A stretch of DNA of 64,000 nt from an uncultured Clostridium sp. (lineage in GTDB: Bacteria > Bacillota > Clostridia > TANB77 > CAG-508), in contig URZW01000007.1 of the NCBI GenBank assembly GCA_900552555.1, forward strand, positions 1,580 to 65,579, in the 5' to 3' direction. Both the position numbers and the translations under genes were made by a program. Below, in pieces: positions 1 through 57,127 of this stretch (position 1 is its first letter; every line of letters starts with the position of its first letter). The notes under the pieces are model-generated. The model was given only the letters and a program-made list of their open reading frames with translations. It had not been told where the DNA came from and searched no databases.

Positions 1-336
1 AACTCCTGTCCATAATACTTTCCAAATAGACCTCTACAAGTTTATTTTATCATTTAAATTCATTTTTTATTCGAGGATAAACACCCTAATTAAAAATATA
101 GTTTTATAAAATACCCACCATTCCTAAAACAAAAATGGCTTTGTTTCCTACTTTGTTATAACACCCTTACCAAATCAGTAGGCTATTTGGTTCGGATGAC
201 GCCGCAAACTAGGCAGCGTAAGCTAATTCTTCATTGTTAGCGTTTATTTTTAGTTTCTCGTTTATTTAAGTGGCCAACGAGAATCCACTACTTGCTATCT
301 ATTTTTCTGGTAATATGTCGAAACCTTTACATCCCC
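1..336 (-). ncRNA. ssrA: tmRNA (SsrA), 3' end cut by window edge
   Basis: The reverse complement from 336 reads GGGGATGTAAAGGTTTCGAC, the canonical tmRNA 5' end. The internal tag frame GCT AAC AAT GAA GAA TTA GCT TAC GCT GCC TAG (241..209) encodes ANNEELAYAA*. The reverse complement of 1..11 (GGACAGGAGTT) looks like the start of the T-arm. Confidence 0.9.
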
Positions 337-1225: not shown

Positions 1226-1247
1226 CAATCAAACAAATATAATATCA

Positions 1248-1467
1248 TATAATGTTTTCCTTATGGTAGTTTGCAGTATAATGGTATTTTTAATTGCCTT
1301 CGGTTCAATACACAATATAATAATTTCTAAAATCTTTTTTGGACTCCCTTCCACTAAAGTGAACTCTTGTCCAAAAAAGATTTAATAAATTTTAATATTG
1401 TTTCAATCACATTCAGACAATTTAAAAATTCCATTATACCGCAAACTACCATAAGAAAAACATTATA
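1248..1467. repeat. Long rod-like palindromic element, family PE-1, copy a
   Basis: The 123-nt core (1294..1416) is identical to 22150..22272. About 38-nt inverted arms start TTATGGTAGTTTGC. The apical 15-bp stem is 1330..1344 / 1369..1383. The track ORFs 1152..1385(+) and 1354..1611(-) are mirror-image artefacts of the palindrome. Confidence 0.85.
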
Positions 1468-1570
1468 TAGTAACACAGACTGTAAATTTTCTGTAAAATC
1501 TCTTGTAAAATTCCATAACTTGGTGTAAAATACGAATAATTGCAAATAATAATAGGAGGAAAAAATAAAA

Positions 1571-8671: not shown

Positions 8672-8702
8672 CTTTCTATTTTATTTAACAAATACATTAT
8701 GG

Positions 8703-8900
8703 TTAAGTAATGAGAACGGTTGAGATAACTATAAATGATATTTTTCATAACGTTAACAAATTCTAATGTAAATACTCTAACAATACCCGAATACAGGACC
8801 CTTTAGAGCATTTACTTAAGAATTTGTAACACTATTTTGGTCACATTCGAAATATATTCAAAATATCATTTATACTTATTTTAATTATGCCCATTACTTT
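8703..8900 (+). repeat. Long palindromic element, family PE-2, copy a
   Basis: About 120 nt are near-identical to the reverse complement of 28551..28672. The central imperfect stem of about 27 bp is GTTAACAAATTCTAATGTAAATACTCT / AGAGCATTTACTTAAGAATTTGTAAC. It encloses the loop CAATACCCGAATACAGGACCC. Confidence 0.8.
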
Positions 8901-8996
8901 ACTGTAATACATTATATCATAAATTATATTAAAAAGGTTGAATAAAATGAACATTAATTATATAATAATCACAACAAAAACCAAGGAGGAAGAAAC

Positions 8997-9959: not shown

Positions 9960-11723
9960 ATGAAAGCAATAGAAATAAGAAATAAATACCTAAATTTTTT
10001 TAAAGAACATGGACACGCTGTAATACCATCAGCACCATTAATACCAGAAAATGACCCATCAGTACTATTTACAACTGCAGGAATGCAACCATTAGTACCA
10101 TATTTATTAGGGGAAAAACATCCATCAGGAACAAGACTTACAGATTACCAAAAATGCTTAAGAACAAATGACATAGAAGAAGTAGGAGATAACAGACATT
10201 TAACATATTTTGAGATGTTAGGAAACTGGTCATTAGGAGATTACTTTAAAGAAGAATCAATTCAAATGAGTTTTGATTTCTTAACAAAAGAATTACAAAT
10301 TCCAGTAGAAAAATTATCTGTAACAGTATTTGCAGGGGATGACGATTGCCCAAAGGACGAAGTAGCAGCAGAATGCTGGAAAAAAGCAGGAATTTTAGAT
10401 GGACATATCTATTATTATGGAAAAGACGATAACTGGTGGATAGCTGGAGAAGAAGGACCATGTGGACCAGACACAGAAATGTTCTATGATACAGGAAAAC
10501 CAGCATGTGGACCGGACTGTCAACCTTCATGTGACTGTGGTAAATATGTTGAAATATGGAACAATGTATTTATGGAATATTTCAAAAGCAAAGATGGAAA
10601 ATATTCAAAATTAGCTCAAAGAAATGTTGATACAGGACTTGGACTAGAAAGAATGACAATGTTGTTACAAGGAAAAGAAACACCATTTGATACAGAATTA
10701 TTCAAACCAGTAATGGACAGACTATCAGAATTACAAAAAGTTGATAACATAGAAAGTAGAAGAATCATAGCAGAACACTTACGTTCAAGTATGATGGTAA
10801 TTAGTGATGGTGGAAGACCAAGCAATGTTGACAGAGGATATATTTTAAGAAGATTAATTCGTAGAATGGTAAGACATATGAACAAACTACAAATAAATCT
10901 AGATGAAATATCAACACTAATAGATATCAATGTTGAAAACTTAAAAGAAATGTATCCAGACTTAGCAAAAAATCAAGAATTAATAAAAAATGTAATAATT
11001 GAAGAAAAAAATAAATTTGTAAAAACACTTGCACATGGTGAAAAAGAATTCGAAAAAGAAATGAATAAAGCTAAAGAACAAGGAAAAACTAAAATAGATG
11101 GAAAAGTAGTATTTAAACTATATGACACATATGGATTTCCACCAGAAGTTACAAGTGAATTAGCACAAGAAAACAATATGACTGTTGATATGAAAGAATT
11201 TGACGAATTATTTAAAGTACATCAAGAAAAGTCAAGAATGGGTTCAGAACAAAAATTTAAAGGTGGACTAGCAGAACAAAATGACACAACAATCGCATAT
11301 CATACAGCAACACATTTATTAAATGCAGCACTTAAAGTAGTTTTAGGACCAGAAACACATCAAAGAGGTTCAAACATTACAATAGATAGAATGAGATTTG
11401 ACTTCAACTGTGACCACAAAATGACATACGAAGAAAAGAAACAAACAGAAGATTTAGTAAACAAATGGATTCAAGACGCTTTACCTGTAACAGTAGAAAA
11501 AATGAAAAAAGAAGATGCTGTTAAATCAGGTGCAGAATGTATGTTTATTGAAAAATATCCAGATGTTGTAACTGTTTACACAATAGGAGATGTTTCAAAA
11601 GAACTTTGCGGTGGACCTCATGTTAAAAACACAAGTGAACTTGGAAAATTCAAGATCAAAAAAGAAGAAGCAAGTTCAGCAGGAGTTAGAAGAATAAAAG
11701 CAATTTTGGAAAAAGGGATTTAG
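9960..11723 (+). CDS. alaS: Alanine--tRNA ligase, short form lacking the C-Ala domain
   Basis: Contains FTTAGMQP, GNWSLGDYFK and the editing-domain motifs HTATHLLNAALK and CGGPHV. The ORF ends 6 aa after RRIKAIL, and its stop codon lies inside a REP unit. Confidence 0.85.
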   Translation: MKAIEIRNKYLNFFKEHGHAVIPSAPLIPENDPSVLFTTAGMQPLVPYLLGEKHPSGTRLTDYQKCLRTNDIEEVGDNRHLTYFEMLGNWSLGDYFKEESIQMSFDFLTKELQIPVEKLSVTVFAGDDDCPKDEVAAECWKKAGILDGHIYYYGKDDNWWIAGEEGPCGPDTEMFYDTGKPACGPDCQPSCDCGKYVEIWNNVFMEYFKSKDGKYSKLAQRNVDTGLGLERMTMLLQGKETPFDTELFKPVMDRLSELQKVDNIESRRIIAEHLRSSMMVISDGGRPSNVDRGYILRRLIRRMVRHMNKLQINLDEISTLIDINVENLKEMYPDLAKNQELIKNVIIEEKNKFVKTLAHGEKEFEKEMNKAKEQGKTKIDGKVVFKLYDTYGFPPEVTSELAQENNMTVDMKEFDELFKVHQEKSRMGSEQKFKGGLAEQNDTTIAYHTATHLLNAALKVVLGPETHQRGSNITIDRMRFDFNCDHKMTYEEKKQTEDLVNKWIQDALPVTVEKMKKEDAVKSGAECMFIEKYPDVVTVYTIGDVSKELCGGPHVKNTSELGKFKIKKEEASSAGVRRIKAILEKGI

Positions 11724-11854
11724 GGACGTTCCTGAAAATCCCTTTTTCAGGGGAATGGGGGACACTCCTTTTTGATTATGAATAGTTTTAAATTTAAAAA
11801 GGACTGTCCCCTTATCCCAATTTGAAGGGAATTTAAGGAACGTCCCTAAATCCC
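11715..11854. repeat. REP family B inverted doublet (REPIN-like)
   Basis: GGGATTTAGGGACGTTCCTGAAAATCCC...GGGGGACACTCC (11715..11768) is paired with its inverted partner GGACTGTCCCC...AAGGAACGTCCCTAAATCCC (11801..11854). The spacer is 32 nt. Confidence 0.85.
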
Positions 11855-11879
11855 TCTTCGAGAGAAAGGAAAGATAAAA

Positions 11880-15204: not shown

Positions 15205-15234
15205 TTGTCAATAGGGACGCCCCTTTTTGACAAC
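15204..15234 (+). repeat. REP family C singlet
   Basis: GTTGTCAATAGGGACGCCCCTTTTTGACAAC has an 8-bp stem and a 15-nt loop. Confidence 0.85.
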
Positions 15235-17271: not shown

Positions 17272-18153
17272 ATGGAAAAACAATTAAAACTTTTTTTTGA
17301 ATTTTTAGAAAATGATAAAAAATTATCAAACAACACATTACAATCATACAAAAGAGATTTAAAACAATTCAGAAGATACATAGAAGGATGCGAAGTAGCA
17401 TATACAAAAGTAGACGAAGAAGTAATGCAAAACTACATTGAATATTTAGAAGAATTAGGAAAAAAACCTTCAACTATTTCAAGATGTATAGCATCAATAA
17501 GATCTTTTTATCAATATGTATTAAAAAAAGGAAAAGTAAAAAAAGACCCAACAAAAAATATACAATCTCCAAAAGTGGAAAAAAGAACACCATGTGTCTT
17601 AACATCTAAGGAAGTTGAATTATTACTAGAACAACCAAAAGATATTGATTTAAAAGGAATAAGAGATAAGGCAATGCTTGAATTTGCATATGCAACAGGA
17701 ATGAGAGTTACAGAGATAATATCATTAGACATAGATGATATAAACTTTACAGAAGGATATGTAAATTGTAGAAAAGCAAATAAACAAAGAATAATACCAC
17801 TTGGAAAAATGTCTTTAAAAGCATTAAAAGAATATACAGACCATGCAAGAGAAATATTACTTAAAGATGATAATGAAAAAGCATTATTTGTAAATGTTAA
17901 TGGACAAAGATTAACAAGACAAGGATTCTGGAAAATTATAAAATATTATAAAGAACAAGCTCATATAACAAAAGATATAACACCACATGTTTTAAGACAT
18001 TCTTTTGCAACACATTTATTACAAAATGGAGCAGATTTAAAAGCAATTCAAACAATGCTTGGACATTCAGATATTTCTTCAACACAAGTATATATGCAAT
18101 TTCAAGATGAAGGATTAAAAGATATTTATCAAAAAGCTCATCCAAGAGCTTAA
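17272..18153 (+). CDS. xerD: Tyrosine recombinase XerD
   Basis: The C-terminal LRHSFATHLLQNGADLKAIQTMLGHSDISSTQVY matches the R-H-R-Y catalytic box. Confidence 0.9.
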   Translation: MEKQLKLFFEFLENDKKLSNNTLQSYKRDLKQFRRYIEGCEVAYTKVDEEVMQNYIEYLEELGKKPSTISRCIASIRSFYQYVLKKGKVKKDPTKNIQSPKVEKRTPCVLTSKEVELLLEQPKDIDLKGIRDKAMLEFAYATGMRVTEIISLDIDDINFTEGYVNCRKANKQRIIPLGKMSLKALKEYTDHAREILLKDDNEKALFVNVNGQRLTRQGFWKIIKYYKEQAHITKDITPHVLRHSFATHLLQNGADLKAIQTMLGHSDISSTQVYMQFQDEGLKDIYQKAHPRA

Positions 18154-20080: not shown

Positions 20081-20110
20081 ATAATTATACACTCTCCTAA
20101 CTATGTTTTT

Positions 20111-20247
20111 TTGTCCTTTTGGGGACGGTTCTTTTTGGGACATTATTACTAAAAAGAATATTCTGTGTAACCGCTCTGTTTCTAAGATTTTATATTATGC
20201 TTAATTTTAAAAAAATGTCCCAAAAAGAACCGTCCCCAAAAGGACAT
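20111..20247. repeat. REP family A inverted doublet (REPIN-like) inside the spoVA operon
   Basis: TGTCCTTTTGGGGACGGTTCTTTTTGGGACAT (20112..20143) has its exact reverse complement within 20215..20247. The spacer is 71 nt. Confidence 0.9.
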
Positions 20248-21248
20248 TAAAGTTCTATACTGATTGCATGAGCTATTCCAGGAATGGATTCGCCCTGTTG
20301 AGAACTGGTAGAATTCATTAAAGCACCAGTTGCAACAAGTAATAATTTTTTAATTTTCTTTTCTCTTAATTGCTTAAATAAATAACCTGAAAATACAGTA
20401 CCACAACAAGCACATCCACTTCCACCAGAATGAGTATCTTGCTTAGCTTTGTCAAAAATTAAAACACCACAATCATTATAATTAGATTTAATATTATAAC
20501 CTTGAGATTTTGCAATATCAATAGAAAGCTCTTTTCCGATGTGACCAAGGTCACCACTTATAATTGCATCATAATAACTTGGATTTCTGCCTGTATCTTT
20601 AAAATGTGTTATTAAACTATCGACAAATGCAGGAGCCATTGCCGCACCCATGTTATTAGCGTCTTTTATACCCATGTCAACAATTTTTCCTGGGGTGATG
20701 TGAGTTATATATGGACCCGTACCTGTTTTAGAAATTATAGCAGCACCACTTCCAGTAACAGTCCATTGAGAAGTAGGTGGACGTTGATTACCAAGCTCAA
20801 GTGGAAATCTAAATTGTTTTTCAGCACTACAAAAATGACTAGAAGTTGCACATAATGCATGTTCAGCAAAGCTTTCAACAGCAATGGCAGATAATGCCAT
20901 AGATTCTACAAAAGTAGAACATGCACCAAATACACCGAAAAATGGAATGTTTAATTCGCGAAGACCAAAACTAGAAGAAATACATTGGTTAAGCAAATCA
21001 CCAGCAAAGCAACAATCAATTTGCTCAGAAGGAATACCAGATTTACTAATTACTGTATTTACAGTTTCCTTTATAATTTTACTTTCAGCTTTTTCCCAGG
21101 TTTTTTCACCCCAAAACTCATCATCTAAGGTTTGGTCAAAATATTTGGCAAGAGGACCTTGGGATTCCTTAGGACCAACAATAGAAGCACATTCTGTTAT
21201 AGTTGGGGGATTATCAAATTTAATAGTTTGTTTTCCTATTTTTTTCAA
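20247..21248 (-). CDS. spoVAD: Stage V sporulation protein AD
   Basis: A thiolase-like SpoVAD with KIGKQTIKFDNPP at the N-terminus and AGDLLNQ. The likely start is TTG 21248 behind AGGAG. The track ATG at 21284 has no RBS. Confidence 0.85.
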   Translation of the reverse strand: MKKIGKQTIKFDNPPTITECASIVGPKESQGPLAKYFDQTLDDEFWGEKTWEKAESKIIKETVNTVISKSGIPSEQIDCCFAGDLLNQCISSSFGLRELNIPFFGVFGACSTFVESMALSAIAVESFAEHALCATSSHFCSAEKQFRFPLELGNQRPPTSQWTVTGSGAAIISKTGTGPYITHITPGKIVDMGIKDANNMGAAMAPAFVDSLITHFKDTGRNPSYYDAIISGDLGHIGKELSIDIAKSQGYNIKSNYNDCGVLIFDKAKQDTHSGGSGCACCGTVFSGYLFKQLREKKIKKLLLVATGALMNSTSSQQGESIPGIAHAISIEL

Positions 21249-22028: not shown

Positions 22029-22103
22029 ACTAAACCTCCTAAAAAATCTTTTACAAATATTTTTTCCGTTTTTAGAAAATTTATACATTATGATTCATTA
22101 TTA

Positions 22104-22322
22104 TAAAGTGGCTTTCTTATGGTAGTTTGCTGTATAATAGTATTTTCAATTGCCTTCGGTTCAATACACAATATAATAATTTCTAAAATCTTTTTTGGAC
22201 TCCCTTCCACTAAAGTGAACTCTTGTCCAAAAAAGATTTAATAAATTTTAATATTGTTTCAATCACATTCAGGCAATTGAAAATACTATTATACAGCAAA
22301 CTACCATAATAAAATCACTTTA
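22104..22322. repeat. Long rod-like palindromic element, family PE-1, copy b
   Basis: The core 22150..22272 is identical to 1294..1416. Perfect 38-nt inverted arms are TTATGGTAGTTTGCTGTATAATAGTATTTTCAATTGCC and its reverse complement. Confidence 0.85.
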
Positions 22323-22412
22323 CGGTGACAATGTTTCTCATATATTATAAAAAATCACATTGCAAAAAAACAAAAAAAGATATATAATTCAAAAAAATAA
22401 CGGAGGTAAAAA

Positions 22413-27241: not shown

Positions 27242-28075
27242 ATGAAAAGTAAAAGTAAGGAAAAAGCAATGGAAATATTTTTTTATATTATAATTTTTAT
27301 GATTGGAATAACATTTGGCAGTTTCTATACTCTAGCAGTATATAGAATACCAAAAGGACAAGATATAACTCATACACATTCATATTGCCCAAAATGTAAC
27401 CATAAATTAAATATATTTGACTTAATACCAGTATTTAGTTATATATTTTTAGGTGGAAAATGTAGATACTGTAAACAAAAAATAAGACCAAGATATTTAA
27501 TTTTAGAAACAATATCAGGCTTAGCTTTTGTGGGATTTGCATACTTAATGGGGCTAAGTGTATATAATTTGGATGCAATAAAAATAACTGAATATGTATT
27601 TTTTGCTTTATATTTTACATTTATTATTTTAATGGCAGGAATAGATAAAGAATATAAAACAATAAATAAACCAGTATTAATGTATGGAGTAATAATTTCA
27701 ATTATGTATATATTATATCTATACATAATAGAAAAAAATAGTATATATAGATATGGTATATATTTACTAGCTTTTGCAGTACTATTATTACTAGACACAA
27801 TTAAACTAAGAAAAAAAGCACAAGATAGTTATACATACTCAATATTGATGGTTATTATAATAATGGCAATATTTACAGGAGAATATGCAACAATAAATGC
27901 AATAATTTCAACATTACTTATGATAGCAATAACAATACTTGTAAAAAAATTAAAACAACCTAAAAGCACAAAAACAACACAACAATATAGCAGTACGATA
28001 AAAATAGGATTATATTTAGCAATAACAAACATTATTTATTTGATTATGGTTTTAGCATATTGTAAATTTATCTAG
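27242..28075 (+). CDS. pilD: Prepilin peptidase (A24 family) PilD-like
   Basis: The N-terminal CPKC..(17)..CRYC zinc module and multi-TM body are present, with the first Asp in AGIDKEY. The expected GxGDxKL motif appears only as LLLDTIKL. Confidence 0.7.
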   Translation: MKSKSKEKAMEIFFYIIIFMIGITFGSFYTLAVYRIPKGQDITHTHSYCPKCNHKLNIFDLIPVFSYIFLGGKCRYCKQKIRPRYLILETISGLAFVGFAYLMGLSVYNLDAIKITEYVFFALYFTFIILMAGIDKEYKTINKPVLMYGVIISIMYILYLYIIEKNSIYRYGIYLLAFAVLLLLDTIKLRKKAQDSYTYSILMVIIIMAIFTGEYATINAIISTLLMIAITILVKKLKQPKSTKTTQQYSSTIKIGLYLAITNIIYLIMVLAYCKFI

Positions 28076-28086
28076 AGAGGAAAAAA

Positions 28087-28518
28087 ATGTTAGTAAAAGA
28101 GGAAAAAGGATTAACGGGTGTAGATATAGCAATTTCAATTGTTGTTATGACAATATTTATAGCTATGATAGCTAATTTGATAGCAAATATAAATTTGAAC
28201 ACACAAGATATAAAAAGAAAAGCAACAGCAACATCATATGCGATACAAGAAATTGAAAAAGTTAAAGCACAAGGTTACATAGATGATTATAATTCAAAAG
28301 GAATTGATAGTGAAGATGTATTAAAAGATGAAGATATCTACAGTAATTCTGAATTTTCGGGATATCACAAAAAAGTAACAATAAAGGATTATGTATTAGT
28401 AACAAATAATAAGAATAAAAAACAAGATGTTGTAAAAGAAATAATGGTGGAAATGTCTTATAAATTGGGAGGTAAAGATAAAAAAGTTACTATTACAACT
28501 TATGTTGCAAGAAAATAG
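28087..28518 (+). CDS. Minor pilin / pseudopilin-like protein
   Basis: The leader is MLVKEEKG|LTGVDIAISIVVMTIFIAMI, with an acidic residue at +5. Confidence 0.6.
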   Translation: MLVKEEKGLTGVDIAISIVVMTIFIAMIANLIANINLNTQDIKRKATATSYAIQEIEKVKAQGYIDDYNSKGIDSEDVLKDEDIYSNSEFSGYHKKVTIKDYVLVTNNKNKKQDVVKEIMVEMSYKLGGKDKKVTITTYVARK

Positions 28519-28520
28519 TT

Positions 28521-28740
28521 ACGGTTTTGTAATTATAATTTATAGAATATGATATTTTGAATATATTTCGAATGTGACCAAAATAGTGCTACAAATTCTT
28601 AAGTAAATACTCAAAAGGGTCCTGTATTCGGGTATTGTTTGAGTATTTACATTAGAATTTGTTAACATTATGTCGGAAACATGAGAAAAATATGAAAAAT
28701 ATCATTTATAAGTATTTTAACCAGTATCATTACTGAACTA
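28521..28740 (-). repeat. Long palindromic element, family PE-2, copy b (inverted relative to copy a)
   Basis: The reverse complement of 28551..28672 matches 8745..8866 with a few substitutions. A roughly 21-nt insertion lies near 28672..28692. Confidence 0.8.
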
Positions 28741-28817
28741 TAACTAAAAACATTTTAAATTTTTTGTATAATTTTATTTTATATGATATAATAAGCAAAA
28801 AAATAAGGAACCAAAAA

Positions 28818-29324
28818 ATGAAAGTATTATATAAAAATAAAACAAAATATACAAAAGAAACATATGCAAAATATCTACAATTTCATCAAAAAAAATTTGG
28901 AAATAGATACACTTTTACCACAATAATAACTATATTATTACTATGCTTTTGTATCATTACAAATTTACAATATTATAACAAACCATTAGCTTTTATATTA
29001 TTAATTGTTTTACTAATTTTCTGTTCTTATAGATTTTTTCACCCAATAAAACTAGTAAAAAAAGAATTAAAAACAGAAAAATTCGAAAAAGAAAAAGAAT
29101 TCACATTTAAATTCTATGAAAAATTTTTTACAATTTCCGATACAAAAAATTTAGAAAAAATAAGATATTGGCAATTGCATAAAATATACGAAACAGAAGC
29201 TTTTTTCTACATTTATATAGATAAAAGTCATGCTTTCCTATTAGACAAATCAACATTTACTAAATGTAATGTATCAGAATTCTTAAAATTTATAAAAAGA
29301 AAAATTTGGTTTAAAATACTATAA
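28818..29324 (+). CDS. YcxB-like membrane protein
   Basis: Two TM helices are followed by FTFKFYEKFFTISD..WQLHKIYETEAFFYIYIDKSHAFLLDK, which resembles YcxB. The start is at MKVLYKNK. Confidence 0.55.
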   Translation: MKVLYKNKTKYTKETYAKYLQFHQKKFGNRYTFTTIITILLLCFCIITNLQYYNKPLAFILLIVLLIFCSYRFFHPIKLVKKELKTEKFEKEKEFTFKFYEKFFTISDTKNLEKIRYWQLHKIYETEAFFYIYIDKSHAFLLDKSTFTKCNVSEFLKFIKRKIWFKIL

Positions 29325-29380
29325 ATTTTTAGATATTTTCGGAATCCAATTCCAAAAATATCTAAAATCTCCATAATTGA

Positions 29381-29411
29381 AAAAAGATGAAGTCACCCCT
29401 CATCTTTTTTT
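29381..29411. terminator. Bidirectional terminator
   Basis: AAAAAGATGA-AGTCACCCC-TCATCTTTTT. Confidence 0.7.
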
Positions 29412-29415
29412 ACAT

Positions 29416-31227
29416 TTACTCACCTTCAAAAATTCTTTCAAATTCATCAGCTTCAATTTTCTCTTTTTCAAGTAAAACTGCAGCAACCGCATGTAATTTA
29501 TCAACATGGTCTGTAAGAATTTGTTTAGCTCTGTTATAGCCTTTATCAATAATAGCCTTTGTTTCCTCATCTATTATACCTGCTGTTTCCTCTGAATATT
29601 CTTTAGATTGAGCAAAATCTCTACCCAAGAACACTTCACTTTGATCAGAACCAAGCATTAATGTTCCTATTCTTTCACTCATACCATATTTTGTAACCAT
29701 GCTTCTAGCAATTTTTGTTGCTCTTTCTATATCATTACTTGCCCCTGTTGAAACATCATTTAATATTAATGCTTCTGCAACTCTACCACCTAAAAGAGAT
29801 ACAATATTTTCTTCCATTTCTGTTTTTGACATAAAGTTTTTATCTTCTGTTGGTCTATACATTGTATAACCACCAGCCATGCCTCTTGGTACAATTGATA
29901 TTTGATGTACTGGGTCTTGTGTTTCTAAGTAATGACTTACTACTGCGTGACCGGCTTCATGGTATGATACAAGTCTATTTTCTTTTTCACTTCTAACTCT
30001 TGTTTTCTTTTCAGGTCCCATAGTTACTTTAACCATAGCATCTTCAATTTCTTTCATTCCAATTTCAGTTAGATTTCTTCTTGCTGCAAGTAATGCCGCT
30101 TCATTTAATACATTTTCTAGGTCCGCACCTGCAAATCCAGATGTATTTTTTGCAATTACTTTTAAGTCAACATCGTCTGCTAATCTTTTCTTTCTAGAAT
30201 GAACCTCTAATATTTGCTCTCTTGCTTTAACATCAGGAGCTCCAACAACTATTTGTCTGTCAAATCTTCCTGCTCTTAATAAGGCTTTGTCTAATACATC
30301 AGGTCTATTTGTTGCTGCTAAAACGATAACACCTTCATTATCTGAGAAACCATCCATTTCAACTAATAATTGATTTAATGTTTGTTCCCTTTCATCATGT
30401 CCACCGCCTAGGCCAGCACCCCTTTGACGTCCAACTGCATCAATTTCATCTATAAATATGATACATGGTGCATTTTTCTTAGCTTGTTCAAATAAATCCC
30501 TAACTCTTGAAGCACCAACACCAACAAACATTTCAACAAAGTCTGAACCACTTATAATAAAGAATGGTACACCAGCTTCACCTGCAACTGCTTTTGCAAG
30601 TAATGTTTTACCAGTTCCTGGTTGACCTACTAATAAAACACCTTTTGGTATTCTTGCTCCCATATCTGTAAATTTCTTTGGATTTCTTAAAAATTCAACA
30701 ATTTCTTGTAATTCTTCTTTTTCTTCGTCAACACCTGCAACATCGTCAAAAGAAATTTTATTTCTGTCTGCTGGTGTCATCATTCTAGCTTTGCTCTTAC
30801 CAAATGACATTGATTTTCCACCATTTTGTCCATTTGCTGCTCCACCCATCATAAAGAACCAGAATATAAAGAATATTATCAAAATTCCAAATGGTGTAAG
30901 TAAACCTAATATAATTGATAATACTGATTCAGAACTTTCTTCTAAAGTGAATGCTCCATTTTTAATAAATTCATCAGTATAATTCATAAAGTTTTCCATA
31001 TTTGGAATATTTACTTGTTTTTTTATTTTATCATCAGATAGTTGAACCGTTGCAGAAGTTCCATCTGCATCTATAACTATTGACTCTACTTTTCCCTCAT
31101 TTATCTTCGCAATTAATTCTGAATATTTTAGTTTTGTATTTGTGTTTGTCATTATTGATGACAACAATACTATAAATATTACTCCGATTATTAGCCACAT
31201 TGCTAATGTTTTAATTCCGTTTTTCAA
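29416..31227 (-). CDS. ftsH: ATP-dependent zinc metalloprotease FtsH (paralogue 2)
   Basis: [17 protein letters not shown] and HEAGHAVV motifs are present. It lies downstream of tilS, as is canonical. Confidence 0.92.
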
Positions 31228-31491: not shown

Positions 31492-32520
31492 TTACATCAA
31501 ATTTATAAAATAAATTTTTTGATTTTTTACTAAAACTTTTATATTTTTATTTGGAGTTAGATATTTATTACCTATATTTTTTTTACATAATTTTATAATA
31601 TCTTCTATATGTATTTTTTCTATTCCTTTTGTTGTTCCCAAAAGTCTTGATATAGTATATAACAAAAGTCTTGATTTTATAACCTTTTCTTGCTTGTTAA
31701 AACCTTTTAAATCCATTACAATTTGTTTTTTTTCTTCATGTTGCACATATTCTTTATACTTTTCTTCAACAACTTTTTCTAAATATTCATCTTCCTCTTT
31801 TACTAAATCTGATAGTCTATCCATTGTTTGAATTATATTTGGATTAAATTCTTCTTTAATGAATGGAATAACAATATTTCTTACTTTATTTCTAGTATAA
31901 ACATTTTCAAAATTTGTTCTATCAATTCTTGGTTCAATTCCATTTTGAGCACAATATTCTTCTATTTCAAATCTTTCACACTCAATTAAAGGTCGTATAT
32001 ATTTGTTATTCTTTATTGGTTCAATTCCCTTCAAACCTGCTATTCCGCTACCTCTTAGCATATTCATAATAATAGTTTCTATTTTATCATTTTTATTATG
32101 AGCAATAGCAATTTTATTTGCATTCTCTTTTTCCAAAATTTCATCAAAAAATTCATATCTTGCATTTCTTCCCGCTTCTTCTGTTCCTATTTTTTTATTA
32201 TTAGCAATTTTTTGAACATCTATACTTTTTGCATAAAAAGTAACTCCTATTTTTTTGCAAAAATTTTCAACAAATTTTTGATCATCTATTGCTTCTTCCC
32301 TTATCATATGATTCACATGTGCAACTATTATATCAAAGTTCATGTGTTGTTTTTTGTCATTTCTTATGTCATTTAAAATATTTAACATAGCAATAGAGTC
32401 CGGTCCTCCTGAAACACCAAGAACCAGCCTATCTCCATCTTTTATTAAATTATATTTTTTTATTGTTTCCAAAACTTCTGTCAATAGGGACGCCCCTTTT
32501 TGACAACTTTTCTTTTCCAT
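31492..32520 (-). CDS. tilS: tRNA(Ile)-lysidine synthase
   Basis: The PP-loop LVLGVSGGPDS is present. The start ATG 32520 gives MEKKSCQKGASLLTEV, in which residues 5-14 are encoded by a REP C unit. Confidence 0.8.
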   Translation of the reverse strand: MEKKSCQKGASLLTEVLETIKKYNLIKDGDRLVLGVSGGPDSIAMLNILNDIRNDKKQHMNFDIIVAHVNHMIREEAIDDQKFVENFCKKIGVTFYAKSIDVQKIANNKKIGTEEAGRNARYEFFDEILEKENANKIAIAHNKNDKIETIIMNMLRGSGIAGLKGIEPIKNNKYIRPLIECERFEIEEYCAQNGIEPRIDRTNFENVYTRNKVRNIVIPFIKEEFNPNIIQTMDRLSDLVKEEDEYLEKVVEEKYKEYVQHEEKKQIVMDLKGFNKQEKVIKSRLLLYTISRLLGTTKGIEKIHIEDIIKLCKKNIGNKYLTPNKNIKVLVKNQKIYFINLM

Positions 32521-32573
32521 TTGACTATCATTCCTTTCTGTCAATAGGGACGCCCCTTTTTGACAACTTTTCT
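32476..32573 (+). repeat. Two tandem REP family C units (identical 38-mers, 60-nt period)
   Basis: TTCTGTCAATAGGGACGCCCCTTTTTGACAACTTTTCT occurs at 32476..32513 and again at 32536..32573. Confidence 0.9.
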
Positions 32574-33309
32574 ATTTTAATTCTTTTGCTATATTTCGTA
32601 CAGTTTCTCTTCCTACATTTATGTATATAGATATTTGCCTTAATGAAAGACCATAATACTCTTTTAACATATTAATTATCTCTTTTAAATTCTTTCTCTC
32701 ATTTTTCAAAGTATCAAAATTAATATTATTAATTTTCATATACTCTTCTATAGCATTTTTTATCTCTACTTCTTTTTCTTCTTCTATTTCTAAAAAATTT
32801 TCTTTCTTATCTAAAATATCTTCTTTTATCAATAGCCCATTGATATTTCGTTGAATTTCTTCCATATTTTTTATATATTCGTTGTAACTTGAATACTCAT
32901 ATTCAGATGCTAACCTACAAATACCTGCTTTTACAGGATTATTATGTATATAATTTATACATGTATACAATTGTTTTTCCGAATAAATTACCTGACTTTT
33001 ATATCTATCTCTAAATACATAACCTACCCTGTTATATTTTTTATTGTAATACATCGCATATAAAGTATTTACCTTATGCATAAAACGACTTAAGCATTCT
33101 ATATATTCTTCTTTTATCAATATGTGAACATGATTATCCATGATACAATATGAAACAATATAAACATCAATTTCCTTTTTTACTTTATTAATAAATTTTA
33201 AATATTGCCTTTTATCTTCAACCTCATTAAGAATATACTCCTTATTTATTCCTTGAACCACGATATGATAAAAAAACATATTAGTACATTTTCTTGGACC
33301 TCTTGCCAT
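32572..33309 (-). CDS. REP-associated tyrosine transposase (RAYT)-like HUH/Y1 protein with C-terminal HTH
   Basis: The HUH motif lies in IMDNHVHILIKE and the Tyr motif in GYVFRDRYKSQVI. The C-terminal tail is LSLRQISIYINVGRETVRNIAKELK. An AGGAGG RBS precedes ATG 33309. Confidence 0.75.
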   Translation of the reverse strand: MARGPRKCTNMFFYHIVVQGINKEYILNEVEDKRQYLKFINKVKKEIDVYIVSYCIMDNHVHILIKEEYIECLSRFMHKVNTLYAMYYNKKYNRVGYVFRDRYKSQVIYSEKQLYTCINYIHNNPVKAGICRLASEYEYSSYNEYIKNMEEIQRNINGLLIKEDILDKKENFLEIEEEKEVEIKNAIEEYMKINNINFDTLKNERKNLKEIINMLKEYYGLSLRQISIYINVGRETVRNIAKELK

Positions 33310-33408
33310 ATTTTCCTCCTTACTTCTTAAGGTCCCACAAAATTTATCCCCCAAAATGTATTTACATAATACTATATTCTTTTATAAAAGTCAATCATAA
33401 AAGTAAAA

Positions 33409-33439
33409 GTTGTCAAAAAGGGGCGTCCCTATTGACAAC
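33409..33439 (-). repeat. REP family C unit, inverted relative to 32476..32573
   Basis: GTTGTCAAAAAGGGGCGTCCCTATTGACAAC is the exact reverse complement of the 15204 unit. It shares one base with the dnaB stop codon. Confidence 0.9.
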
Positions 33440-34773
33440 TAATCATTATATCTTCTTTCCAAATTAACAAATTTTGTATAACTTCCAAGCCATCCTAAAT
33501 CCACAGTTCCAGTTGAACCACCTCTGTGTTTAGCAATAATGACTTCTGCCACATTTTTCTTTTCGCTATCTTCATTATAATAATCGTCTCTATATAAAAA
33601 CATAACAATATCAGCATCTTGTTCAATAGCTCCAGATTCACGCAAATCTGAAAGCATAGGTCTATGATCAGGCCTTTGTTCAACAGCTCTTGACAACTGT
33701 GAAAGTGCAATTACAGGCACATTTAATTCTTTTGCAAGAATTTTTAAAGATCTACTTATTTCTGATATTTCTTGTTCACGGCTAGCGTTACGCTTATTAC
33801 TTCCTTGTACCAATTGCAAGTAATCTATTACAACTAAACCAATATTTTTTTCTAATTTTAGTTTTCTACATTTAGCTCTTATTTCCATTACAGATATACC
33901 TGGTGTATCATCTATGTAAATTCCTGTTTCTGAAAGCGGGCCAATTGCTTCTGCTAATTTTCCCCAATCTTCATCTTCCAACTTACCTGTTCTGACTTTA
34001 TTACTATCAACCATGGCTTCACTACATAAAATTCTGTTTACCAATTGTTCTTTTGACATCTCCAAACTGAATATTGCCACTGGTGTATTTCCTCTTACTG
34101 CTGCATTTGTAGCAATATTTAATGCAAATGCAGATTTACCCATTGCAGGTCTTGCAGCAACTAATATAAGTTCTGAGCCATGTAAACCTGCTGTTCTGTA
34201 ATCCAAGTCTGAGAATCCTGTTGGAACACCTGTTATATGTTGTTTTCTATTATATAACTCTTCCAATTGAGTAAAACTATCAACCAAAATATCTTTTATA
34301 GGTGCATATCCTTTTTGATTTTTATCTTGCATTATATTAAAAATCTTCTTTTCCGCACCTTCCATAATATCTTCAACATCTTCTGTTGGGTCATATCCTA
34401 AATCTATTATTTCATTTGCAGTTTTTATCAAATTTCTTAATACAGATTTTTCTTCAACAATTTTAATATATTTAGTTGCATTTGCCGTTGTTGGAACCTT
34501 TTCAGGTAATTCTGCCAAATATTCAAAACCACCTACTTGCTCAAATTTTCCCATTGATTCTAATTCGGATTTTAATGTTATTAAATCAATTGGCTCTGCT
34601 CTGTTATACAAGTTCAACATTGCTGAATATATTATTCTATTATCTTCTCTATAAAAATCTTCTTCCTTTAAAACTTCTATACTACTTGCCACAGCTTCTT
34701 TATCTGTAAGCATACTTCCTATTACTGCTTGCTCTGCTTCTACATCATGTGGTGGTATCTTTCCTATGTCCAT
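33439..34773 (-). CDS. dnaB: Replicative DNA helicase
   Basis: Walker A ARPAMGKSAF is present. The 444-aa product follows rplI, as is usual in Firmicutes. Confidence 0.95.
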   Translation of the reverse strand: MDIGKIPPHDVEAEQAVIGSMLTDKEAVASSIEVLKEEDFYREDNRIIYSAMLNLYNRAEPIDLITLKSELESMGKFEQVGGFEYLAELPEKVPTTANATKYIKIVEEKSVLRNLIKTANEIIDLGYDPTEDVEDIMEGAEKKIFNIMQDKNQKGYAPIKDILVDSFTQLEELYNRKQHITGVPTGFSDLDYRTAGLHGSELILVAARPAMGKSAFALNIATNAAVRGNTPVAIFSLEMSKEQLVNRILCSEAMVDSNKVRTGKLEDEDWGKLAEAIGPLSETGIYIDDTPGISVMEIRAKCRKLKLEKNIGLVVIDYLQLVQGSNKRNASREQEISEISRSLKILAKELNVPVIALSQLSRAVEQRPDHRPMLSDLRESGAIEQDADIVMFLYRDDYYNEDSEKKNVAEVIIAKHRGGSTGTVDLGWLGSYTKFVNLERRYND

Positions 34774-47790: not shown

Positions 47791-48789
47791 TTATTTTAAT
47801 TTTTCAATCTCATCATCTCTTAATCCTGTTATTTCTGATATTTCTTTTTTAGAAAGATTTTTATTTAATAATTTTTTTGCAATTTCCTTTATTCCCTCAA
47901 TTTTTCCTTCAACCTTACCCTGTTTTCTACCATTCATAAAAATCTCTCTATTTTCTTTTTGTATCATTTCAAAGACAGCCATCATCGCTACATCACCACC
48001 TTCCTTATCTAAATTTTTTAAAATTTTATTAGTTTCATTTTCACCAATTTTAATTCTAATTATTTTATTTAAAATATTTCTAAACATTTCCTTAGTTTCT
48101 ATAGGATAAGTTTGTTTATCATTATTAATTATCTCCGCTATTTTTTCCAAATAATTTACAGTATCAGTTACTGTTTTTGTTTTTTCTATTAACATTGCTT
48201 TTGTATAAAAAGATTTTGATTTCAATAATTGTTCTTCACTATATTCATTAACATCAACTATATTAAACTTTGCAAATTGAATCTCCTCAATATTATCTAA
48301 TCTTTCCTGAATATCACTTATATATGTCCCTGCATTCCATCTTCTATTACCAGTATATAATACTATCGGATATACAATAGGCAACTTATAATTTTTATGT
48401 CCATATCTTTTTCTATTAATTGCATTTTCCATTATCAAAACCTCATATTTAAGTATTCTAAACGGCATTGTATAATCAATTTTTGTTTGATGCTCTATTA
48501 AAAAGAAAATATTTTTATTTTTTAACTTATATATAATATCAGATTCTTGATTATTAAAGTTCATATCAATAAAACTACTATTATATTTTTCTAAATCTTT
48601 TTCTAATACTTGAACATTAAATATATCTTTTATTAATTTTGATACCTCTCCATTATTATTAAATATTGTTCTAAATGTTTTATCATGTTCATTATTTACT
48701 TTATTTTTAATTAGTTCATATTTCTCTGATTCTTCTCTAATATCACAATTATTATATACTTTCTCTTTTTTTATATAAGTTATATACAT
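47791..48789 (-). CDS. Rpn-family recombination-promoting nuclease / PD-(D/E)XK putative transposase
   Basis: HDKTFRTIF and IFFLIEHQTKIDYTMPFRILKYEVLI are typical of the YhgA/Rpn family. Confidence 0.75.
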   Translation of the reverse strand: MYITYIKKEKVYNNCDIREESEKYELIKNKVNNEHDKTFRTIFNNNGEVSKLIKDIFNVQVLEKDLEKYNSSFIDMNFNNQESDIIYKLKNKNIFFLIEHQTKIDYTMPFRILKYEVLIMENAINRKRYGHKNYKLPIVYPIVLYTGNRRWNAGTYISDIQERLDNIEEIQFAKFNIVDVNEYSEEQLLKSKSFYTKAMLIEKTKTVTDTVNYLEKIAEIINNDKQTYPIETKEMFRNILNKIIRIKIGENETNKILKNLDKEGGDVAMMAVFEMIQKENREIFMNGRKQGKVEGKIEGIKEIAKKLLNKNLSKKEISEITGLRDDEIEKLK

Positions 48790-55793: not shown

Positions 55794-56339
55794 CTATTTT
55801 TTACTAAATTTATTTAAAACAATACCAACTTTATGCACAATTTCAGTAGACTTTTTATTAGCAATATCCTTGCCAAAAGCCTTACCACTAACTGTAAAAG
55901 CTGACACTAAAGCACTCAAAACAAACTGAATATTAAAAGGCAAATTCATTTGAGTTGAAATCTTTATAGAAATCAATGCACTTATAGAACCACTTAATAC
56001 ACCACAAATATCACCAATAACGTCTGCACAAATATTTGCAACCTTTGGGGCATTTTTGATTAATTTAATTGAATCTTTTGAACCTTTTACTTTTTTGGTT
56101 GCTTTTGCATGAAATTCCTCTTCATTAGCAACTGTAACCGCTACACCTATAATATCAAAAAATATTCCTAAAAATACTACTAATACCAATATTAAAAGTG
56201 CAGGTATCAAGCTTAAATTTGATACTCCATTTGTTGATACATATGCAAATATCATTGATAAAATAAATGTCATTATAAATGATTGTATAACCCATTTCAT
56301 ATTCGAGTGTTCCTTTTTACTTTCTTGATTCTTTTTCAT
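55794..56339 (-). CDS. Small multi-pass membrane protein (candidate OapA-like partner of the upstream ncRNA)
   Basis: The 181-aa product has about 4 hydrophobic segments and an AGAGGGA RBS. It lies immediately downstream of, and co-oriented with, the large ncRNA candidate. Confidence 0.6.
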   Translation of the reverse strand: MKKNQESKKEHSNMKWVIQSFIMTFILSMIFAYVSTNGVSNLSLIPALLILVLVVFLGIFFDIIGVAVTVANEEEFHAKATKKVKGSKDSIKLIKNAPKVANICADVIGDICGVLSGSISALISIKISTQMNLPFNIQFVLSALVSAFTVSGKAFGKDIANKKSTEIVHKVGIVLNKFSKK

Positions 56340-56471: not shown

Positions 56472-57092
56472 ATAAAATTAAAACAAGCACTAAGGCTTGC
56501 CATTAATTTCTAAATTAAAATATAGATGGTAAAAATCTAAGTAAATTTTACGGTTTAGGTCTGGTTGAATTTCTCTACTTCCCGCTTAGCATTACTGCTA
56601 GAACCGTTTCCGTTTAAGGGAACCAGCTAAATTTATTTTAGCCACCAGATCGCCACTCAAATCCGTACCTTAATCCCCAGATTTTCAAGCTTTTGATAAA
56701 GCAAACATTCTAGAAGTTTTCCTTGACATACTTTTGCAAACTTACTAGTCTTTTTTGCAAGTATAATTTCATAATCCAGAATAAAAATTATTTGGCCGAA
56801 CAATTTTCATTCCCGTCAAATTAATCCCAATACACTCACTCGAGACAGGCTACACTATGTATTTTGTGTCTTGGCACTCAACATAGGTTTAACTTAAATT
56901 TTTCTATTTAAGCCTCCGCGAAACTAGGGAATCACATATATGCCATTATATATTACCCTAACCCCTTTACTCCCTGGTTACACACAAAACTGGCATTTCG
57001 CGCACAAACAAGAAACTTCAACGATGTGCCCTTTAGTGGATTTTTAGCCCCACCCTCGTAAGTTTAAGTACGACTAGAATAATGCACCATCA
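56472..57092 (-). ncRNA. Large structured ncRNA candidate (~620 nt; OLE-like by size and context)
   Basis: It lies within a 923-bp gap without ORFs, where GC is clearly above the local background. It has its own promoter and a 3' hairpin CAAGC-CTTAGT-GCTTG plus a T-tract. Many local helices and one long-range helix are visible (TCTGGTGG...CAACCAGA). Confidence 0.6.
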
Positions 57093-57098
57093 ATTAAT

Positions 57099-57127
57099 AT
57101 TATAACTTATTTCTAGAAATATTCCAA
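57099..57127 (-). promoter_or_regulatory. Promoter of the ncRNA
   Basis: The minus strand reads TTGGAA (57127..57122), a 17-nt spacer, then TATAAT (57104..57099). Confidence 0.6.

Follow-up and report, generated by a model that had tools for sequence, protein, structure and literature searches.

PE-1, a new family of palindromic MITEs in uncultured gut Clostridia whose arms are probably kept complementary by DNA-level copying

Introduction

The described bacterial MITEs include the Correia/NEMIS elements of Neisseria, RUP of S. pneumoniae, bcr1 of the B. cereus group, and ERIC. The palindromic element treated here, PE-1, resembles these families, in a comparison of general properties drawn from what is commonly known of them and not from sequence, in that it is small, non-coding, multi-copy and intergenic, has terminal inverted repeats and a duplication of fixed length, folds into a stable hairpin, and is present or absent at a given site depending on the strain. 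It differs from typical MITEs in that its palindrome runs almost the full length of the element, its centre is better conserved than its termini, and its inner arms are far better matched. Elements that consist mostly of long inverted arms, with homogenization of one arm by the other, are also known from eukaryotes as foldback (FB) transposons. The foldback arms are made up of tandem subrepeats and are much longer than those of PE-1; these elements belong to another domain of life, and we imply no homology.

Three other kinds of system bear on the interpretation of a long, mobile palindrome. Template switching homogenizes the arms of inverted repeats and inverts the spacers between them (PMC8604942, PMC7202029, PMC8794818). 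The quasipalindromes in which it has been studied share with PE-1 clustered paired changes that keep or restore perfect complementarity, a lack of bias against transversions, and the occasional inversion of the segment between the arms. They are short, however, with arms of about 5-20 bp and spacers of a few bp, whereas PE-1 has arms of at least 39 bp around a structured spacer of 115-125 bp and is mobile; for PE-1, template switching is one likely route. The REPINs associated with RAYT genes (PMC3116915) are inverted doublets that form a long hairpin, frequently show compensatory changes and persist for long periods within one lineage, all of which is reminiscent of PE-1. In REPINs, however, the two REP ends are conserved and the spacer varies, whereas PE-1 has variable arms around a conserved centre. 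Lastly, invertons resemble PE-1 in having inverted repeats around an asymmetric segment that is found in both orientations. They differ from it in that inversion of PE-1 is rare across samples, no invertase gene lies next to it, its repeats differ from copy to copy, and the element is itself transposable.

Results

Extent and internal layout of PE-1

We analysed a stretch of 64,000 nucleotides, referred to below as the window, in which a preliminary description had placed two copies of PE-1 at 1248-1467 (copy A) and 22104-22322 (copy B). Both placements hold. The identical core that had been reported as 123 nt long is also real, and the longest run of identity between the copies is in fact 125 nt (1292-1416, identical to 22148-22272), with the two centres aligning without gaps. 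The apical 15-bp stem AAATCTTTTTTGGAC/GTCCAAAAAAGATTT with its 24-nt loop was found in both copies as described; it occurs exactly twice in the window, where no occurrence is expected by chance. Each copy is predicted to fold into a single long rod, at -80.9 kcal/mol for copy A (z = -14.1) and -97.2 kcal/mol for copy B (z = -15.8), and none of 200 shuffles folded as well in either case. We likewise find the 39-nt arms of copy B to be perfectly complementary and the arms in general to be copy-specific yet self-complementary, the differences between A and B falling at positions that are paired within each copy.

One claim that needed revision concerns the sequences just outside the arms, which had been taken for inverted repeats peculiar to each copy. 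They are decayed forms of a terminal motif common to the entire family, GTTACTATATAATGGTTTTC / GAAAACCATTATATAGTAAC, which reads GTTACTATATAATGGTTTTC on the left and its complement on the right, and beyond which the similarity among aligned copies falls to background. The element therefore extends past the arms as first drawn and is about 233 bp long (Table 1), with ends of the form GTTAC(T)ATATAATGG...CCATTATATAGTAAC.

Copy A lies after the terminator (1182-1219) of a gene for a 192-aa protein and before the promoter and start (1571) of a FemAB-family gene. Copy B lies between a divergent dodecin-family gene (start 22028, minus strand) and rsmB (22413), upstream of the promoter-like site that rsmB has of its own (22360-22388). 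A more distant, degenerate palindromic element with PE-1-like architecture was also seen in the window (Table 1). Its apical loop differs, the arm motif ATAAATGATATTT and the junction motif GGTCACATTCG are kept, and the direct repeat AATACATTAT flanks it; it is probably an old member of a sister MITE family.

Table 1. Coordinates of PE-1 copies A and B, their parts, and a related palindromic element in the window
Feature	Position	Strand	Remarks
PE-1 copy A, full element, 234 bp	1241..1474	+	ends from alignment to family termini
Copy A, left terminus AATATCATATAATGTTTTCC	1241..1260	+	decayed form of GTTACTATATAATGGTTTTC
Copy A, left inner arm	1261..1299	+	pairs with 1416-1454; 4 mismatches or indels in 39
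Copy A, conserved centre	1300..1415	+	~90% pairwise identity between copies, against ~60% for arms
Copy A, asymmetric internal loops TTCGGTTCAATACAC / GTTTCAATCACATTCAG and short stems	within 1300..1415	+	contents of the centre
Copy A, apical 15-bp stem	1330-1344 / 1369-1383	+	apical 24-nt loop at 1345-1368
Copy A, right inner arm	1416..1454	+	
Copy A, right terminus GAAAAACATTATATAGTAAC	1455..1474	+	1 mismatch to the family consensus
PE-1 copy B, full element, 233 bp	22097..22329	+	
Copy B, left remnant of 8-bp target duplication, TATGATTC	22089..22096	+	partner AATGTTTC at 22330-22337, 6/8 match
Copy B, left inner arm	22117..22155	+	perfect complement of 22271-22309
Copy B, conserved centre	22156..22270	+	apical stem 22186-22200 / 22225-22239, loop 22201-22224
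Copy B, right inner arm	22271..22309	+	
Degenerate distant palindromic element, PE-1-like architecture	8691..8913	.	DNA fold z = -4.7; relatedness judged by eye

Host and census of copies

The window has a G+C content of 25-32%, and sporulation proteins SpoVAC/SpoVAD are encoded in orthologous loci. The nearest named relative of a flanking protein comes from 'Clostridium sp. CAG:470', and the closest genome record is a human-gut Clostridia MAG. Several other features of the window were recorded along the way. A tmRNA gene (1-336, minus strand, 127 bits) is truncated by the window edge. An OLE (ornate large extremophilic) RNA is matched over its full length by the Rfam model (56510-57106, minus strand, 351 bits), and directly downstream of it lies an ORF for a 181-aa membrane-like protein (55794-56339, minus strand). 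Within ~28000-30000, gene orientation and the sign of the GC skew switch near 29 kb, at a peak of cumulative skew. Genes lie on the plus strand to the left of this point and on the minus strand to its right, and the switch may mark a replication terminus or the boundary of an inversion. The ORF at 33439-34773 is DnaB-like, as judged from its N-terminal sequence only.

The preliminary description had anticipated many copies and had named a pair produced by segmental duplication as the finding that would speak against its reading. The family turned out to be considerably larger than a pair. A metagenome scan with 21 nt of the apical loop returned 24 loci, the named records among them being human-gut assemblies, and a scan of species-representative genomes with an arm 21-mer had as its sole match the orthologous copy-A locus in one MAG, with flanks 96.9% identical. 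Overall, about 17 distinct PE-1 loci are known, and two copies lie in the window. Two scans of viral contigs found no PE-1 copy, blastn against plasmid and phage collections gave no match, and nhmmer with the family profile added no copies in the window or the fetched loci. One sample contributed eight PE-1 contigs, seven of them at 6.0-7.4x coverage and one at 4.6x, which suggests a single genome. An uncultured gut Clostridia species of low GC content, a relative of 'Clostridium sp. CAG:470', appears to carry PE-1 at 8 or more copies per genome. All of the copies are intergenic and they occur in both orientations relative to the neighbouring genes (about 10 co-oriented and 6 opposed). At the three loci that were looked at closely, the element sits between the upstream terminator and the promoter belonging to the downstream gene.

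PE-1 is a mobile element with an 8-bp target duplication

The clearest view of the insertion process comes from the pgsA-greA intergenic region. In 8 samples this region is empty and reads ...GAATTGTTT AAAGATTA GTTTATTTT... (TTT AAAGATTA GTTT) within a spacer of 125 nt; these samples carry a 99%-identical PgsA variant, P0012. About 25 samples of the same species have identical flanks, between which stand the 233-bp element, GTTAC...GTAAC, and a second AAAGATTA. The last codons of pgsA fall inside the target duplication, and the TAG stop codon is rebuilt by the first G of PE-1. A sister species, whose PgsA is 91% identical, is likewise without the element here. The precise empty site and the 8-bp duplication directly demonstrate that PE-1 inserts and is mobile, and the family has been active recently.

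The preliminary description had argued that a target-site duplication would be direct, and that the inverted flanking sequences of the two window copies did not look like one. Direct 8-bp duplications do in fact lie outside the true termini of other copies, and in the window they have decayed to remnants that match at 4/8 positions in copy A and, when scored in the allele of strain L030, at 6/8 in copy B. Among 16 independent loci, the 8-mers beside GTTAC...GTAAC match at 7/8 positions or better in 4, compared with 0.4% of cross-copy controls. With the exception of a parent element, every MITE feature that was looked for is present: small size (233 bp) without coding capacity, terminal inverted repeats (GTTAC(T)ATATAATGG... 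on both ends in most copies), a target duplication of fixed length, multiple copies and insertion polymorphism. PE-1 is therefore a new MITE family in an uncultured lineage, and as such an element of a known kind.

These observations also dispose of the earlier suggestion that a small element, the core, had landed in the loops of unrelated hairpins that were already in place. That suggestion drew on the arms and outer repeats of the two window copies, which differ from each other. The arms and termini can nevertheless be aligned across all copies, where they form subfamilies, the outer repeats are homologous, and at the empty site the termini, arms and centre arrived together, as a palindrome of 233 bp, in a target that is not palindromic. 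We regard loop insertion as having a negligible chance of being correct.

Search for a mobilizing partner

Searches for PE-1 termini in the window and related loci, together with all-against-all repeat detection, revealed no ORF-bearing partner or transposase gene with PE-1 ends in the window, in ~400 kb of related loci, or in plasmid and phage collections. One candidate, a YhgA/Rpn-like Transposase_31 gene (PD-(D/E)XK nuclease) at 47791-48789 on the minus strand, has neither recognisable inverted-repeat ends nor PE-1-like flanks and was set aside. The window also encodes an IS200-like Y1 transposase (32572-33354, minus strand, Pfam Y1_Tnp). Copies of the palindrome TGTCAATAGGGACGCCCCTTTTTGACA stand to either side of its ORF, a pair at 32479-32516 and 32539-32571 and a single inverted copy at 33405-33437, and a further copy is found at 15213. 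The gene and these palindromes look like a RAYT/REP arrangement, and TGTCAATAGGGACGCCCCTTTTTGACA has no similarity to PE-1.

The presence of the Y1 gene raises the question of whether PE-1 could itself be REPIN-like, that is, moved as single-stranded DNA by a Y1 transposase of the IS200/RAYT type, with the hairpin selected for recognition. The tetranucleotide that IS608 targets, TTAC, is present in the ends of PE-1. REPINs, moreover, share with PE-1 the compensatory changes seen across the hairpin (PMC3116915). Against this, Y1 transposition makes no target duplication, whereas PE-1 has one of 8 bp, and the palindrome found on both sides of the Y1 gene is unrelated to PE-1. Mobilization of PE-1 by such an enzyme is accordingly very improbable in our estimation.

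Two other repeats in the window deserve mention. A second dispersed family, characterized by GGGGACGGTTC, occurs in the window at 20107-20251 and 2738 and in loci L003, L005, L019, L021, L023 and L030-L036; at 20107-20251 two copies form an inverted doublet with 41-nt arms (REPIN-like), and single copies are found elsewhere in the window as well as in many related contigs. At 11711-11858, between the ORF at 9960-11723 and the ORF for a 114-aa protein that follows it, there is a near-contiguous palindrome, the arms of which are 72 nt long and 76% complementary and enclose a loop of 4 nt.

Covariation of the arms is strong and DNA-like

The preliminary description had proposed that complementarity of the arms is actively maintained, and covariation among copies supports this. 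In 20 aligned copies, 93.9% of cells are paired compared with 82.0% in shuffles, and 46 of the 74 pairs have changed on both sides, compared with 21.7 in shuffles, none of 500 of which reached the observed value; when partner columns are slid against one another, pairing falls to about 40%. Within copies, mismatches affect 5.5% of positions in the inner 39 nt of the arms and 22.9% in the outer 20 nt (Fisher p = 9e-13). Between copies, identity is ~60% in the arms, ~60% in the termini and ~90% in the centre with the 21-nt probe excluded. Recent insertion by itself does not account for the matched arms: copy B, an old copy that is fixed in all eight sampled strains, has mismatches at 7/20 terminus positions and 2/8 duplication positions and at 0/39 inner-arm positions. 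Its arms are perfect despite decayed ends, so that complementarity of the inner arms must have been kept after insertion and is not merely a sign of a young copy. In one copy (L009, 5789-6059) the inverted repeat reaches about 25 nt past the usual termini (AATGTAGCAATCTAT / ATAGATTGCTACATT), which suggests either insertion next to or within another palindrome or an outward spread of arm homogenization.

Covariation of this strength, combined with a low folding energy and conserved unpaired loops, is what one would look for in a structured RNA, and selection for an RNA hairpin had indeed been put forward. According to this interpretation, PE-1 would be a small or cis-acting RNA under selection for folding, whose C/U-rich loop CUCCCUUCC pairs with Shine-Dalgarno sequences, and a promoter-like TTGCCT-16-TATAAT at the arm/centre junction on the plus strand of both window copies could be taken to drive its transcription. 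The pattern of changes argues otherwise. Selection on one RNA strand should tolerate G:U and not A:C, yet there are 32 G:T and 31 A:C mismatches, so that the pattern lacks strand asymmetry and is DNA-like. Transversion-type swaps are also common, with 39 of the alternative Watson-Crick pairs being of the transversion type and 31 of the transition type. The copies lie in either orientation relative to their neighbours, the window copies have no intrinsic terminator, and the last base of the putative -10 box is T, C or G depending on the copy. A transcript from the junction promoter would, in addition, lack the left arm and thus could not form the rod. Rfam returned nothing for PE-1 at the gathering score and, at E<=10, only spurious sub-threshold matches to long-hairpin models of plant miRNA precursors. 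Considering that PE-1 is also a transposon with a target duplication and an empty site, we find selection for an RNA hairpin unsupported and the RNA interpretation improbable. The data are best explained at the level of DNA, by a hairpin or cruciform or by recombination of one arm with the other.

Paired changes, inversion and recombination at individual sites

Strain comparisons at single sites provide a view of how the arms change in place. At the pgsA-greA site, which was filled recently, the flanks are nearly invariant across strains (one 1-nt indel), and the arms read GCTGTATAATAGTATTTTC / GAAAATATTATTATACAGC in one group of strains and GCTTTATAATAATATTTTC / GAAAATATTATTATAAAGC in another. 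The groups differ by a G:C to T:A double transversion at paired positions and by a change from G:T to A:T, and the GCTTTATAATAATATTTTC / GAAAATATTATTATAAAGC arms are perfect. At a second site, adjacent to murT, one pair is G:C, T:A or a T/C intermediate depending on the strain, and a block in the right terminus alternates between GAAAAAC and GGAAACC. Paired changes that cluster in this way, next to flanks that do not vary, suggest templated events. They are read most simply as one arm having been copied from its partner; conversion from another copy with complementary arms, or selection on the hairpin, could also produce them.

At the murT-adjacent site, the centre and inner arms of strain L017 are inverted relative to 8 other samples. 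Two inner-arm mismatches travel with the centre, which places the exchange in the outer part of the arms, and comparison with a closer relative, L046, makes only the inner boundary firm. The inversion is known from a single metagenome contig of low coverage (7x); the arms of L017 differ at three positions, which makes k-mer collapse during assembly unlikely. Orientation is otherwise uniform, being identical for copy A at the orthologous loci L001, L026, L027, L061 and L062, and for copy B in seven further samples (L030-L036). Inverted alleles number 0/6 at locus A, 0/8 at locus B, 1/9 at locus C and 0/~19 at locus D, or ~1/50 strain-by-locus observations, all from consensus assemblies, which are blind to minority orientations. 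An inversion at this frequency fits occasional recombination or template switching between inverted repeats, and it speaks against a fast programmed switch.

We also considered whether PE-1 might be a programmed inverton, in which the arms would be recombinase sites and the centre an orientation-dependent promoter or terminator that subjects neighbouring genes to phase variation. The breakpoints of the one natural inversion lie inside the arms near a conserved TGTATAAT motif, the motif ATAAT.GTATTT is conserved in arms that otherwise vary, and the centre contains the promoter-like site mentioned above. A gene for a tyrosine recombinase (17272-18153, plus strand) lies 4 kb from copy B. This recombinase looks to be of the ordinary XerC/D type, however, and is not adjacent to PE-1; the elements lie upstream of promoters that the downstream genes have of their own, the -10 box is not conserved, and the uniform orientation at loci A, B and D led us to reject rapid phase variation. 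A programmed inverton is therefore an unlikely explanation of the family.

Recombination between copies appears to have had larger effects as well. In L023/L048, which are one contig, as compared with L003/L049, the pgsA-site element continues from its left half into a different right half, beyond which lies ftsH in place of greA. The join indicates that two PE-1 copies recombined and produced a chromosomal rearrangement in one strain.

The conserved centre

Two parts of the centre break its symmetry: the apical loop of 24 nt, and the internal loops, both sides of which carry TTCAAT(A)CACA in the same direction. The centre is far more strongly conserved than the termini, the presumed recognition sites of a transposase, and this is the reverse of what is seen in typical MITEs. 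Because a 21-nt sequence of the centre served as the retrieval probe, part of this difference is ascertainment bias; the 100 nt of centre beside the probe are, all the same, conserved even where half of the arm positions have changed. Conservation may stem from a requirement for mobilization, from homogenization between copies or from a function at the level of the host. Two specific readings of the centre fared poorly. A 40-aa ORF running through it had no match among 5.8 billion proteins and is interrupted in L020 and altered in L006. A promoter in the centre is disfavoured by the final base of the -10 box, which is not conserved between copies.

Discussion

The data are most readily brought together if PE-1 is a MITE-type, non-autonomous transposon whose arms are kept complementary by arm-to-arm copying of DNA, and we consider this explanation likely to be correct. 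PE-1 is a non-coding element of ~233 bp, with inverted repeats that begin with 5'-GTTAC, and inserts with an 8-bp duplication, mostly between a terminator and the next promoter. According to this proposal, one 39-bp inner arm would, after insertion, serve as the DNA template for the other and so keep the two complementary, probably either by template switching within the hairpin during replication or by recombination and gene conversion of the inverted repeats with each other. A mutation that arises in a single arm would then either be erased or be copied into the partner arm, so that the arms of different copies can diverge without any copy losing its self-complementarity. Now and then, the centre may be flipped by the same means. 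More speculatively, the asymmetric centre of 115-125 bp would most likely either be needed for mobilization in trans, through binding of a transposase or host factor, or be homogenized between copies by recombination. A more elaborate version, in which the centre is a functional cargo, such as a small regulatory RNA gene or an orientation-dependent signal, that is carried by the MITE and flipped by means of its self-homogenizing arms to make a “mobile inverton”, could draw on the conserved centre, the one flip and the promoter-like site, and strikes us as doubtful.

PE-1 has consequences for the way in which covariation is read. The family is a clean natural case in which compensatory change, at 46 of 74 pairs, is better explained by a process acting on DNA than by selection on one RNA strand, and it carries a practical warning for covariation-based RNA discovery in repeat-rich genomes. 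The comparisons that were informative here, namely the symmetry of G:U and A:C mismatches, the frequency of transversion swaps and the mismatch rates of inner and outer arms, can be added to such analyses as tests that separate RNA from DNA readings.

PE-1 copies appear to be an unusually clear record of concerted evolution of arms at the DNA level. The family would also be a tractable system in which to measure how long inverted repeats undergo template switching or conversion of one arm by the other. For the uncultured, reduced-genome lineage of gut Clostridia in which it resides, PE-1 is both a strain marker and a source of rearrangements.
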